Virus record (IMG/VR): IMGVR_UViG_3300025645_000042
Coordinates: 1 to 64,000 of that record
Strand: one strand, 5' to 3'
DNA from: a virus
Length of the DNA: 64,000 nucleotides
Part shown: positions 1,352-18,615 of the stretch, piece by piece
Layout of the letters: every line of letters starts with the position of its first letter
How positions within the stretch are numbered: the first letter of the stretch is position 1
Made by a program: the position numbers and the translations under genes
The notes under the pieces: model-generated
What the model was told of the DNA's origin: nothing
Seen by the model: only the letters and a program-made list of their open reading frames with translations
Databases searched by the model: none

Positions 1352-1430
1352 AAAAATTTGAGTATAAGGTAGGTTGGAGTCTACTCTTCCTGATTGTTAG
1401 TCACCGCCCTTAGAGTCTTTCCTCATTGTC
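1352..1430 (-). ncRNA. small two-hairpin RNA family, copy 1 (longest 5' region)
   Basis: Minus-strand TAtcTTTG promoter at 1436-1443, no ORF, conserved motif at 1369-1390, U-tract downstream. Confidence 0.65.
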
Positions 1431-1569
1431 TATTACAAAGATAAGTAATATAAATGATACTACCAAATAATTTGTGGTTTTTTTTAATTTATTTTTTATA
1501 TAGTTTTATTTTGTGGTTATATAATATTATTGTATATTTGCATCAATGTTTAATTAAAACCACAAAATC

Positions 1570-1878
1570 ATGAGTATTACAGCAAACGAAGCAACCTTAA
1601 AGACATTAAAAGCGGAGCGCAAATCTTTAGATGGACAAATCAAATTATTGGAGCGAGTTATTTTTAAACAAAAGCTGCCTGAAGATGGTATTATATTAGA
1701 TGAGGGTCTTGGAGAGCGTTATCCAATGTCATCGGGTTATTATGGTATTATAGTTTCAGAGAGGCCCGCAATGCATATATATCAAGATAAGATATATGGT
1801 ATTGAGATATGGCAGTATAAGGAAGACTCTGTAGACATCAAAATAGGTTATGTTAGTACTAAGCATGGAAATTTTTAA
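1570..1878 (+). CDS. early hypothetical protein
   Basis: ORF directly downstream of a consensus promoter and A-rich leader. Confidence 0.8.
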   Translation: MSITANEATLKTLKAERKSLDGQIKLLERVIFKQKLPEDGIILDEGLGERYPMSSGYYGIIVSERPAMHIYQDKIYGIEIWQYKEDSVDIKIGYVSTKHGNF

Positions 1879-1956
1879 AAAAAAGTATAAAATAATTTGC
1901 ACAGTATATAATAAAGTCTTATATTTGCATCAGTAATAATTAAAACAACAGATATT

Positions 1957-2859
1957 ATGAAAAATTTATTTCCATTTGAGTACATTGAAAATCCATTAAA
2001 GAATCAAGATGGTACTGATTCTAATTTCAGACAGGTGTTTGGGTTAGGTGGTATTAACGTAGCTTGTCCAAAAGGGTCTTATCATATTGTTAAGGCGACA
2101 GATTTAAGTTCATTAGGACATTCCTTTATTGATAAGGGATATGAGGTAACGACATTCAACCATAGATGTGGTGAAGTTATTGGGCTTAACATTTCTTTTG
2201 GGGAGAAGGGTACAAAGGTAGGTGATTGTAGTTATAAGTTAATTATCACAGTTCCAAATAATGGAGGTGGTAAGGGTTACTTATCAATTAAGCAGACACG
2301 TTTAATTTGCACCAATGGTATGGTATCTAATAAGACTGTACACAAAGACAATTACATTAAGATTCCACATACATGGAATTACAATGATAGTATTAAATTG
2401 ATGGAACAGTCGATTGGTAGTTTCACATCTTTAATGACACAATTAGAGAATAGAGATGAGATATTCAATGAAGTTGCACTTAAGGATACTGAAGTTATGT
2501 ATCACCTTAATAAGTGGTTTTTTGAGCAAGAATTACCTGTATCTCAAAAGAAGGTTAAGACTGAAGATGGATGGGTTCCAATGACTTTAGATATGTTTAG
2601 AGAGATGTTAGTTACATCACCAAAAGAAACGCCTTCATACGCTCGTTACTGTGAGTTAAAAGAGGCTTATGAGAGAGAGATTTCTTATAACAAAGAGTTA
2701 GGTTTAGATTTAACCATGTACACAGTATATGCATCGGTAACGAATTACTTATCACGTAGAGTTGAGAGTTCAGGTTCAAAAGCATCGAATGAGGTGAAGT
2801 TTGAGAGAGCGAGTAAAAAGTTAGTTTACTTTGATTCGATTGAATCGAGTTTAGTATAA
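1957..2859 (+). CDS. DUF932/DUF945-family protein
   Basis: RLICTNGMV motif typical of this family; own promoter; terminator follows. Confidence 0.7.
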   Translation: MKNLFPFEYIENPLKNQDGTDSNFRQVFGLGGINVACPKGSYHIVKATDLSSLGHSFIDKGYEVTTFNHRCGEVIGLNISFGEKGTKVGDCSYKLIITVPNNGGGKGYLSIKQTRLICTNGMVSNKTVHKDNYIKIPHTWNYNDSIKLMEQSIGSFTSLMTQLENRDEIFNEVALKDTEVMYHLNKWFFEQELPVSQKKVKTEDGWVPMTLDMFREMLVTSPKETPSYARYCELKEAYEREISYNKELGLDLTMYTVYASVTNYLSRRVESSGSKASNEVKFERASKKLVYFDSIESSLV

Positions 2860-2865
2860 AAGCAT

Positions 2866-2900
2866 TGGGGTAAGATTGGATGCCTTACCCCATTTTTTTT
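2866..2900 (+). terminator. intrinsic terminator
   Basis: tggggtaag/cttacccca stem plus T-tract after the DUF932 stop. Confidence 0.85.
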
Positions 2901-2961
2901 AATTTTTCATTTTGAATCCCATCAGTTAATTCTGGTGGGATTTTTTTATTGAAATATAGTA

Positions 2962-3020
2962 AGGAAAAATAAAGGTAGGTTGGAGTCTACTCTTCCGATT
3001 TGTTAGGTCAGGCCCTTTGT
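2962..3020 (-). ncRNA. small two-hairpin RNA family, copy 2
   Basis: Promoter at 3026-3033 on -, motif at 2975-2996, one mismatch from copy 6 over about 60 bp. Confidence 0.7.
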
Positions 3021-15961: not shown

Positions 15962-16225
15962 AATACAAAGATAAGAAAAAAAAATGAACCCACCAAATAA
16001 ATGATGGGTTATTTTAAATTATATTTTATTATATAAAAGTTTGTTAGTATGGATTCCATACATTGCTTTGATACTATTACTAACAATACCATTAACTTTT
16101 GATAATTGGATTGCTAATAGTTCAGCTCTTAAATTGATACGTGCATTAAATTTGTCTTGATAAGTCATTTGTTGTTTTGTTTTGATTACATTACAAAGAT
16201 AAGAAATATATTTGATTTATCCTAA

Positions 16226-16540
16226 TTAAAATGTATAAACTTCATCAGATAATGAAAATGTGATTTCGCCCTCAGTTTCAACTTTAGTTTTGATTGCACG
16301 TTTAATTGCAGATTGTAAACTACTTAATGATTGATATCTTTCATAATTTAACCCCTTATTGGTTCTAACATAAAGATTTGCACCAAAGGAACTCAATTTA
16401 CAATCTACACCATGTCTATCTTTTAAGATAAGTGAAAACGTATAAGGTTTATCAGACAAGTGTAAATTTATTTGTTTTTTACCCTTGTATAAGTCTTCAA
16501 GAGTAATATTTACATCTTTAAGGTTTTGTACTCTTTTCAT
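16226..16540 (-). CDS. early hypothetical protein
   Basis: ORF with its own promoter. Confidence 0.7.
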   Translation of the reverse strand: MKRVQNLKDVNITLEDLYKGKKQINLHLSDKPYTFSLILKDRHGVDCKLSSFGANLYVRTNKGLNYERYQSLSSLQSAIKRAIKTKVETEGEITFSLSDEVYTF

Positions 16541-16652
16541 TTGTCTTGTTGTTTTGATTACAGCACAAATATAAGACTTTATTATATATAAACCTAATTA
16601 TTTAACATAAAAAATGGCCTCTAAATTTAGAGGCCATTTATAAAGAGTTATT

Positions 16653-17582
16653 TTATTTCACTCTTTTTATCAAAACAAATACCATGTGTGAACCATCATC
16701 AGAATAATCAATTACTTCCTCAAATTTATAGTTGTTACTCATAAAAGACAATAACTTCAATCTAATACCACCAATTGTAGTTGGTGTATCTTTAGAGCCT
16801 ATTTCAGCTAAAATCGATTTATGATACTCAATAGACGTTTGATTTTTAGTGTTTGCTTCACGAGTAGTGAAAGTTAAACCAATTAAACCACCACGTATCA
16901 CTAAATTATTAGTAAAAATATGTCTAATTTCAGCTTCGTAGCTTGGAAATGTACCACAATAATCAGCAAATATATGAGCAAAAAAATCATTCTTTTTTGA
17001 CATTAAAACTTCACTTGCTTTACCTAAATGTAACTGCATTGAAAGTTTATACTTTGCAATGGTTTGTAATGCTTGTTCAAAAATATCTTTTTTACATTCA
17101 GCACCGATGTAATGAAACTTATTTTCTAAATTAATATTCAATTCATTTTCAAAGGCACAAGTTTCACTTGGTAAGCTAAAAAACCTACCTTGTGTTTTTT
17201 TAGTTTTTCCAATAGCTTCGATAAACTTATATCGTATATTCATTTTATTAACACCATTGAAACGAGTTTTGGTTTCTTCTTTTAACTCATTCAAATCTAC
17301 TGAATAGATAGCAGTATAAATAGCTTCTGCATTAATAGGGTTGTTGGTTTCTTTATCTAAGAAACGACTTAAAGCATAAGATGTGATTCCTAACTTTTTA
17401 CTTAATGTTATGTGAGTATAAGTACTTGACTTAGCTAACTTTAATAAGTTGTTACGCTTGACCGTTATTTCACGTTTAAGTCCACCTAACTTTTGTGGCA
17501 CTTCAAAATTAAAATCTAACTCATTTGACTTTACATTAGGGTTTCTAATGATTTGAACTTTTACTTGATTTTCTGTTAACAT
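16653..17582 (-). CDS. HTH plus degenerate class I SAM-methyltransferase-like protein
   Basis: ITLSKKLGITSYALSRFL (Cro/C1-like HTH); FFSLPS..C.FE, YIGAE, HIFADYCG resemble Rossmann MTase motifs. Confidence 0.45.
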   Translation of the reverse strand: MLTENQVKVQIIRNPNVKSNELDFNFEVPQKLGGLKREITVKRNNLLKLAKSSTYTHITLSKKLGITSYALSRFLDKETNNPINAEAIYTAIYSVDLNELKEETKTRFNGVNKMNIRYKFIEAIGKTKKTQGRFFSLPSETCAFENELNINLENKFHYIGAECKKDIFEQALQTIAKYKLSMQLHLGKASEVLMSKKNDFFAHIFADYCGTFPSYEAEIRHIFTNNLVIRGGLIGLTFTTREANTKNQTSIEYHKSILAEIGSKDTPTTIGGIRLKLLSFMSNNYKFEEVIDYSDDGSHMVFVLIKRVK

Positions 17583-17669
17583 AATTAGTTTGTTTTGATT
17601 AAATATTGATATTACAAATATAAGATAAAAAATAACCTAGCAAAATAATTACCAGGTTATTTTATAAAT

Positions 17670-18416
17670 TTACGCAACTTTTAATTTAGGTGCGTTAACT
17701 TTAGATGCACGAACTAACATCTTTAATTCATTTCTAAGGTCATTTTCATTTTCAGTAAACCCAACACTTTCAGCACGTCTAATAATTAATGGCTTAATTA
17801 TTTTATGGTTATAGTCTTTATCATTCATTATATCAATAATAGCACGTCTACAAAATGCTTTACTAGGTAAATAATCATTCAAGTCTACAATTTGCTTAAT
17901 AATTTGGTCTGACTTGGCTTCATCAGTAAAAGTCATAGTACCTTTACGAAATTCATTCATTGAACTTTTACCACTATAAGCCTTAACTAATGGTGTGATT
18001 TGAATTTTAGTTTCAGTTTGAACTTTTAATAATTTAACGTATTCTGAAATATTTAATTTTGACCATATATTAAGGAATTGATTTGTCCCCCACGCTTTTG
18101 CACAATTATTAACGTCTGCTAGGTAGTTTGCCAACTCTAAGGTAGTAGCTATCTCAACAACATCAAACTTGAAGGGAATGTTCAAAATTTTAGCAGCTAA
18201 AAATCTATGTTGACCATCTAAAATATAATAAGACATTACACCATCAATAGCATCAGTTTTAATAACTGTAACACAACTAACAAAACCCCAACGCTTAATC
18301 GATTCAACTAATCTATTAACATGGTTTTGGTCTGCCTCTCTATTGAAGTTAAAGAATTTAAATAAGTCATAATCTTGTGATAAAAATAACTTTGTTTCTT
18401 GGAATAAATTTTTCAT
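17670..18416 (-). CDS. ParB/Srx-like N-terminal domain protein
   Basis: NR...HV.RL..SIK..GF and ILDGQHRFLA motifs. Confidence 0.75.
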   Translation of the reverse strand: MKNLFQETKLFLSQDYDLFKFFNFNREADQNHVNRLVESIKRWGFVSCVTVIKTDAIDGVMSYYILDGQHRFLAAKILNIPFKFDVVEIATTLELANYLADVNNCAKAWGTNQFLNIWSKLNISEYVKLLKVQTETKIQITPLVKAYSGKSSMNEFRKGTMTFTDEAKSDQIIKQIVDLNDYLPSKAFCRRAIIDIMNDKDYNHKIIKPLIIRRAESVGFTENENDLRNELKMLVRASKVNAPKLKVA

Positions 18417-18559
18417 TTGTTTTGGTTTTGATTATTAAATATTGATTACAGTACAAATATAAGACTTTATTATATACTAACCAAATAAAACCAGGTAAAT
18501 TTACAACATAATGAAACTTTTTAATATCCAAGAACTTTAACATTTATTTTATGAAAACT

Positions 18560-18615
18560 TAAATATAAGGTAGGTTGGAGTCTACTCTTCCGACTTGTTA
18601 GGTCAGGCCCTTTGT
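18560..18615 (-). ncRNA. small two-hairpin RNA family, copy 6
   Basis: Promoter at 18621-18628; CUGAC/GUCGG hairpin; motif at 18570-18591. Confidence 0.7.

Follow-up and report, generated by a model that had tools for sequence, protein, structure and literature searches.

RESULTS

Six copies of a small RNA gene in a phage genome fragment

The window analysed here is the first 64 kb (64,000 nucleotides, nt) of the 119,101-nt IMG/VR record IMGVR_UViG_3300025645_000042, which has a CheckV completeness of 33% and thus probably represents part of the genome of a jumbo phage. It carries six copies of a small non-coding RNA gene that share the 16-mer GTAGACTCCAMCCTAC, found six times as compared with the 0.02 matches expected from shuffles of the window, always on the minus strand (positions 1369–1384, 2975–2990, 13917–13932, 14499–14514, 15918–15933 and 18570–18585). 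The whole record held no copies beyond these six. In each copy a variable part of 27–55 nt folds as a hairpin and is followed by a purine linker and then by GUAG-ACUCCAMC-CUAC, and four types of the main variable hairpin, named P1, occur in the window. An earlier note, made from the same letters, had described six units with a shared constant block and differing 5′ hairpins, each behind its own Bacteroidota promoter and most ending in a U-tract; block and hairpins are as described there, the promoter is present at all six sites and the U-tract in five of the six copies.

All six copies matched the family covariance model R1, defined below, at 20–74 bits with each feature present, copy 4 having AAG for GGG. 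Copy 1 (1352–1431, minus strand, as are all the others) is a long form scoring 68.6 bits, in which an extra 5′ hairpin precedes GGG, a P1 with the loop CUAACAA, the linker GAAGA and the constant block. Copy 2 (2962–3021) is a short form scoring 70 bits; it is an orphan with no downstream gene, convergent with a plus-strand DUF932 gene, and its final base lies 103 nt beyond the DUF932 stop. The P1 of copy 3 (13903–13960) is CAC-UACG-GUG, and copy 5 (15903–15961) is a duplicate of it, the two being 98% identical across a 123-nt cassette that includes the promoter; both match the model. Copy 4 (14485–14542) belongs to a divergent subtype (20 bits), in which AAAGC replaces GGGC, P1 is ACC/GGU, the linker is GAGAA and the loop is ACUCCACC; the same subtype occurs at loci L022 and L012, with compensatory changes in P1. 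Copy 6 (18553–18616) obtained the top score, 74.3 bits. The claim that copies 2 and 6 differ only by an A/G exchange turning C:A into C:G is correct between the start site and CUACCUU; the tails diverge, and over the 105-nt cassettes the two copies are 87% identical. The U-runs begin 5 nt past CUAC in copies 2–5 and at 12 nt in copy 1, while copy 6 has none within 24 nt.

The copies are dispersed, 582 to ~11,000 nt apart, each with its own promoter. They had been described as free of open reading frames (ORFs); mechanical ORFs in fact overlap two of them, at 2926–3048 (minus strand, starting inside the copy 2 promoter) and 14504–14674 (plus strand), neither of which is credible. Our analysis shows the six loci to be independent predicted genes for a phage-restricted structured small RNA of ~50–75 nt.

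A family with a covarying hairpin and a near-invariant core

An exact scan of IMG/VR returned 44 loci, nearly all with the same architecture behind a Bacteroidota promoter. Model R1 was built from 16 copies and is defined as GGG, the P1 hairpin, a purine linker of 3–6 nt, GUAGACUCC and a 3′ strand pairing with GUAG, directly after a promoter. It gave 76 matches in the initial loci and 33 in later ones, and the family comprises 95 distinct copies in 59 fetched loci, which upholds the proposal of a non-coding RNA family that is multi-copy, diversified and driven by promoters, and that joins a variable hairpin to a constant module. RNA-bearing records range from 64 to 369 kb, and five complete or near-complete genomes (288–369 kb) have 1–7 copies each, clustered within ~25 kb. 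The family is also present in a cultured phage, the Tenacibaculum phage Larrie (GenBank; locus L051), whose two copies lie on the plus strand at about 18.78 and 19.41 kb, with all 111 annotated features on the other strand. The second Larrie copy stands, together with the repeated blocks 'gggtgtcagtacaaagatataa...' and 'gttaaagttttgttaaaa', in 1.1 kb without genes (19230–20400), which may be an origin or a regulatory region.

From 5′ to 3′, family members are composed of an optional hairpin, P0 (often with a GNRA-type loop), A(C/A)GGG(Y), P1, the linker, GUAGACUCC, R-M-C, CUAC and NNN-A-W-A, and 48 of the 95 copies have a U-run. The linker is most often 4 nt long (44 of 93 copies) and usually RAGA, with the variants GAGAGA, GAAAGA and GUAGA. 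P1 has 3–8 predicted pairs and occurs as 88 distinct sequences, yet its outer pairs are canonical in 90% of cases, as compared with 48% when partners are swapped. Changes on both sides were found in all five modelled pairs, and the covariation score (0.234 versus 0.131) was reached by none of 500 shuffles. The P1 helix is truly conserved while its sequence changes. The G.U wobbles, 18% of its outer pairs, identify the RNA encoded on the strand of the copy itself as the functional one.

The second pairing, P2 (GUAG/CUAC), behaved differently. No double change was observed, the variants being CUGC, CUGU and GUGG (all wobbles) and GUAU (a mismatch), and in a few copies the register is shifted so that UAGAC pairs with GUCUA. 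As P2 varies only by wobble or mismatch, the constant element is GUAGACUCC itself, a near-invariant 9-mer, and we take this core to be read by its sequence. RNAalifold applied to the ungapped seed recovered P2 alone, because the register of P1 shifts among sequences. An extension of P2 into the flanks as a terminator stem was dropped, since it is not conserved.

Some copies are followed by a second conserved module, (C)UUAUUUAGA-AUGA-AUAUAAAUAA or UUUAGA-N5-UCUAAA, at loci L014, L019 (~3870), L030 (~13950) and L059, with a variant in L028, L049 and L055. This A/U-only hairpin may mark where the RNA truly ends or is processed.

The RNA directly follows the promoter and often opposes its neighbours

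All six window copies are preceded by a Bacteroidota-type promoter, TTTG(G)-N19-21-TAnnTTTG, built as a hairpin embedding the −33 TTTG, a T-run and the TAnnTTTG −7 box. In the promoter of copy 3 (13961–14012, minus strand) a terminator-like hairpin with the embedded −33 TTTG and a T-run precede TATCTTTG (repeat family D1). Those at 14543–14595, 15962–16013 and 18617–18669 (minus strand) have the same build, including the terminator-like hairpin with its TTTG, and related promoters lie upstream of copies 1 and 2 (1432–1485 and 3022–3075, minus strand). Family-wide, 85 of the 95 copies have a −7 box upstream. Three promoter types occur across the phages, each placing the RNA directly after the start site: besides the Bacteroidota type, the motif GCTATACAC precedes the RNA in L031/L050, and GTAAC-N(~19)-CGTATAAT (leader form ATAACCAAnACA) stands before almost every gene in L028, L049 and L055. 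By its position, the RNA is predicted to be the first-transcribed element behind whichever promoter the phage uses. The GTAAC/CGTATAAT promoter is unlike the Bacteroidota TTTG/TAnnTTTG consensus, yet L055 is in a bin labelled Lentimicrobium.

Orientation was assessed for the 72 copies with ORFs on both sides; crude ORF calls placed 38 of them antisense to both neighbours and 25 in the same direction as both. This majority, and the Larrie copies that oppose every gene, argue against an untranslated region (UTR), a riboswitch or a cis-acting antiterminator. In the window, copies 1 and 3–6 are co-oriented with the gene downstream, and where a gene follows, in the window as in related loci, a second full promoter usually lies between it and the RNA. 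The view that copies 1 and 2 are not UTRs of their neighbours is thus supported by the orientation counts, with the correction that copy 1 precedes a minus-strand gene, which has a separate promoter, and that only copy 2 is a true orphan.

Further signals were observed around the copies. Between positions 1200 and 19000 the window has two promoter classes, corresponding to repeat families D1 and D2–D5. Class D1 (CTTATCTTTG plus a T-rich spacer) serves the RNA genes and two ORFs (promoters at ~13067–13151 and ~13362–13446), while class D2–D5 (CTTATATTTG plus a ATATAATAAAG spacer) serves most window genes; the two may be temporal classes. Terminator-like hairpins that hold the −33 TTTG of the next promoter in the loop or 3′ arm were found at 13986–14009, 14567–14592, 15987–16010, 18641–18666, 13097–13134 and 17629–17663 (minus strand) and at 7374–7399 (plus strand), a single element that would terminate one transcript and begin the next. 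Finally, the words (A)TGTTAAA are repeated upstream of promoters in the window (13870–13900, 15870–15900 and 18520–18550) and in L051 (18640–18730 and 19270–19340); the source phage and Larrie have them in common with L011, L018 and L032, and a phage regulator may bind there.

Searches of host genomes gave no counterpart of the constant block

Rfam at the gathering threshold gave no matches in the 64-kb window, and copies 3 and 2 compared with Rfam 15 at E values up to 10 returned chance-level rows only, none of them on the core. No published description of the RNA family was found in Rfam 15 or in the literature searched, in agreement with the earlier impression of an undescribed family; the sole match of a full-text search for the constant block was the unrelated GAGUA reference hairpin of chemical-mapping constructs. 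The family covariance model had no match in 150 sampled Bacteroidota genomes. The 19-mer of the family, searched in 185,579 species genomes, was confined to 10 stretches of metagenome bins, the majority of them with a phage-type promoter context. The invariant 12-mer and its complement were found as single occurrences in 15 of 201 Bacteroidota genomes, with a reversed control about as frequent or more so. Since the 12-mer was never in an array and the block lacks a host counterpart in the genomes searched, it would not be a copied host clustered regularly interspaced short palindromic repeat (CRISPR) or antitoxin, and the lack of enrichment of its complement removes a perfectly complementary conserved host RNA as target.

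No antisense targets were detected in the 119-kb phage genome, the longest complements (11–12 nt) being within the range of shuffles. ARAGORN found no transfer RNA (tRNA) or tRNA-like gene in the window or the whole record, and the bases after CUCC are A/G-N-C, running on into the stem with no 3′ CCA. By eye, we compared the RNA with hammerhead, hepatitis delta virus-like and pistol ribozyme layouts, with lambda/P22 boxB-like loops for P1, and with mimicry of 16S ribosomal RNA around position 1500 and the sarcin-ricin-like word order; none of these applied to the family in general, and they were rejected.

Neighbouring genes include a recurrent but dispensable DUF932 gene

RNA copies 1 and 2 bracket the DUF932 gene (1957–2859, plus strand), and a hairpin at 2914–2943, between this gene and the convergent copy 2, is the predicted terminator of the plus-strand gene. 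In 10 of 10 clustered contigs with DUF932 an RNA copy lies 52–275 nt away, mostly convergent and just beyond the stop, and a second copy is often upstream of DUF932, as in the window. Most DUF932-bearing contigs fetched via the RNA have a copy within about 50–300 nt, with DUF932 proteins from lineages only 22–35% identical to that of the window; when contigs were fetched via DUF932 homologues alone, three of seven lineages had an adjacent RNA. DUF932 was rejected as an obligate partner, as only 18 of 35 RNA-bearing records and three of seven complete genomes contain it and Larrie does not. The link is a recurrent association and not a requirement, possibly inherited synteny. The structure model of the DUF932 protein (mean predicted local distance difference test score, pLDDT, of 75) had no sequence match in the PDB and no meaningful fold match.

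Other small accessory genes flank the RNAs: a ParB-like nuclease (17670–18416) and proteins matching DUF6011 and DUF7227 in the window, and GP88, SprT-like and DUF1281_C/Api92-like proteins at related loci. The source phage and Larrie share three proteins (SprT-like, thymidylate synthase and tail-like), the SprT-like metalloprotease being the only accessory one; its window homologue (25130–25900, minus strand) is 30% identical to the Larrie protein. It too was rejected as a partner, being found in 16 of 35 RNA-bearing records and two of seven complete genomes.

Additional candidate non-coding RNAs lie nearby. Two window units, 7116–7400 (plus strand) and 11950–12268 (minus strand), each have a promoter, ~270–320 nt without an ORF of at least 35 amino acids and a strong terminator (7374–7399, plus strand, and 11979–11949, minus strand, respectively). 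In L028, a promoter-driven ORF-less unit at ~10105–10200 (plus strand) carries GAGUAGACC and likewise ends in the UUAGA hairpin; it could be distantly related to the family or represent a second one.

DISCUSSION

A pseudoknot acting in trans as the favoured reading

Apart from the constant block, the sole invariant element of the RNA is the GGG 5′ of P1. It lies at varying distances from the promoter, the −7 box and the block being 27–88 nt apart, which places the GGG in the RNA and not in the promoter, and the loop CUCC is the only invariant C-rich partner for it. From this we infer that GGG(G) would pair with the loop (C)UCC to give a compact H-type pseudoknot, in which GUAGACUCC would run as a continuous strand through two stacked short helices, GUA(G) with the downstream (C)UAC and (C)UCC with the upstream GGG(G). 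P1, plus P0 in the long forms, would project from loop 1, a single A would form loop 2 and AMC loop 3, RAGA and AMC thus serving as the connecting loops of the fold. A pseudoknot pairing GGA with UCC had been suggested previously; GGA is not conserved, since the linker varies, and the only G-run kept throughout is the GGG that precedes P1.

Natural variation is mixed but mostly compatible with this fold. Among family members four altered loops were found, two C-to-U changes (L109 and L115/L140) and two transversions; the former are compatible with the pseudoknot because U still pairs with G. In three lineages, L049, L012 and the subtype of copy 4 and L022, the G facing the loop U has given way to A and to no other base, with pairing kept.

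We tentatively favour, at somewhat less than even confidence, a compact pseudoknot in an RNA that would be produced early in infection and bind a protein in trans. The RNA would be supplied in quantity from several strong promoters in an accessory or early gene region, and would bind a conserved protein through the constant core as a decoy, sponge or cofactor, acting neither by nucleic-acid pairing nor on its own transcript. Action in trans, and not in cis, is suggested because most copies oppose both adjacent ORFs, the Larrie copies oppose all genes and copy 2 has no downstream gene. In its constant protein-binding determinant (as proposed here), its high dose and its several genes per genome, the RNA would resemble CsrB/RsmZ and 6S RNA; unlike CsrB/RsmZ, which have many GGA motifs per RNA, it has one putative binding module per short RNA and a pseudoknot-like core, and it is phage-specific.

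Several observations weigh against this proposal. Two L030 copies have GUG for GGG, one L023 copy has a C-to-A change in the loop and one L018 copy an A-to-U change at the first loop base, which count on the other side from the compatible variants. No true or double compensatory change supports the pseudoknot, both strands being almost invariant, and the register is a provisional one. A 4-bp stem with a U-run at a distance of 5–7 nt departs from the canonical terminator, which leaves the 3′ ends putative, and our searches found no partner protein. Moreover, the P1 loop types CUAACAA, UCACAAG and CGAGAGG recur in unrelated phages, a hint of specificity in P1 that a decoy relying purely on the constant core would leave unexplained.

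Alternative explanations

These recurring loops keep alive, at a rather low probability, a base-pairing or dual-specificity model. Were the RNAs base-pairing regulators, which we hold to be unlikely, the constant module would be a scaffold or chaperone handle and the 5′ leader and P1 loop would be seeds for host or phage messenger RNAs (mRNAs), each phage keeping a repertoire of P1 types. The presence of several P1 types per genome, four in the window, fits this model as well as the sharing of loop types does. However, no complementarity beyond that of shuffles to the phage's own genome was detected, the candidate seeds are confined to hairpin loops of 4–9 nt, and a scaffold would not need an invariant 9-mer across phages with different promoter types. 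The Bacteroidota promoter, the length (~50–100 nt) and the paralogue families per genome recall the multicopy paralogous small RNAs of FopS/GibS type reported from Bacteroides, but those are chromosomal and pair with mRNAs, while the phage family was not found in the Bacteroidota chromosomes sampled and has no known similarity to them. The C4 RNA of phages P1/P7, a small, trans-acting RNA with tRNA-like features that is matured by ribonuclease P (RNase P), pairs with a defined mRNA via its loops; in the phage family neither a target nor a CCA end was seen.

A small catalytic or ligand-binding RNA, that is, a new self-cleaving ribozyme or an aptamer sequestering, for example, an immune signalling nucleotide, seems improbable. 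The pattern of conservation is that of riboswitch aptamers and small ribozymes, with invariant unpaired nucleotides, a pseudoknot-compatible core and variable peripheral helices; on the other hand, no similarity to Rfam ribozymes or riboswitches was found even at E values up to 10, ~20 conserved nucleotides would make a very small core, and there is no expression platform.

Mimicry of a tRNA acceptor end or RNase P substrate is distinctly improbable. GGG:UCC stacked on GUAG:CUAC would resemble an acceptor/T minihelix (G1-G2-G3.U70, purine 73) that draws a tRNA-directed enzyme, or from which RNase P removes the variable 5′ leader and P0. One register does read G:C, G:C, G.U and then A/G, several copies begin with GGGGCUGA, which matches the 5′ end of transfer-messenger RNA, and some P1 hairpins have anticodon-arm geometry (5 bp and a 7-nt loop, YU...AA). 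Nonetheless, both a CCA and a free 3′ end are lacking, ARAGORN recognized no tRNA-like gene, the A-initial 'anticodons' are not bacterial and the likeness comes down to three or four base pairs.

A cis-acting element, namely an attenuator, a riboswitch or an antiterminator like the put RNA of HK022 for the downstream gene, is very unlikely. Like put, a ~70-nt phage RNA that forms two stem-loops immediately downstream of early promoters, the RNA always directly follows the start site, copies 1 and 3–6 are co-oriented with the downstream gene and a U-run occurs in 48 of 95 copies. Unlike put, which acts on its own polymerase and always precedes genes, over half of the phage-family copies face away from genes: 38 of 72 are antisense to both neighbours, the Larrie copies oppose all genes and copy 2 is an orphan. 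A riboswitch or attenuator is a co-oriented aptamer before a gene with an expression platform, which does not agree with the orientation, the orphans or the second complete promoter that usually intervenes between the RNA and the following gene.

The earlier note had also raised a decoy copying a host RNA, either a solitary CRISPR repeat (Racr) or a type III pseudo-antitoxin repeat, and this reading is largely refuted, retaining hardly any probability. The phage RNAs are, like Racrs and pseudo-ToxI, phage-encoded, promoter-driven, multicopy ORF-less small RNAs in accessory regions, among genes of counter-defence type (DUF932, SprT-like, ParB-like and GP88), and titration of a protein is proposed for both. 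Yet Racrs and pseudo-ToxI are copies of a host repeat, and the invariant block was not present in the host genomes searched: the model had no matches in 150 Bacteroidota genomes, the 19-mer occurred only on the 10 metagenome-bin stretches among 185,579 species genomes and the 12-mer was single and no more frequent than its control in 15 of 201 genomes. Neither is the RNA a repeat-like hairpin plus handle, and its copies are dispersed, not in the tandem ~34–45-nt direct repeats by a toxN-like gene that characterize type III antitoxins.

Implications for Bacteroidota phages

To our knowledge, few phage regulatory or counter-defence RNAs have been described, and almost none from phages of Bacteroidota. 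The family reported here is abundant, with several copies per genome, and its core is conserved to the nucleotide across phages of 64–369 kb with three promoter types, with no cellular counterpart in the genomes searched, all of which points to a specific and important partner. A more ambitious possibility, which we regard as doubtful, is that it represents a new, very small RNA fold, either a new class of aptamer or ribozyme or a pseudoknot decoy that disarms a conserved Bacteroidota protein, immune or housekeeping, that binds RNA. If this were true, many unrelated phages, jumbo phages included, would deploy several copies of it as infection begins, and the interchangeable hairpin would provide a second specificity. 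The tiny invariant core would be an attractive structural target, and since Larrie is a cultured phage, the partner and the phenotype are accessible at the bench.

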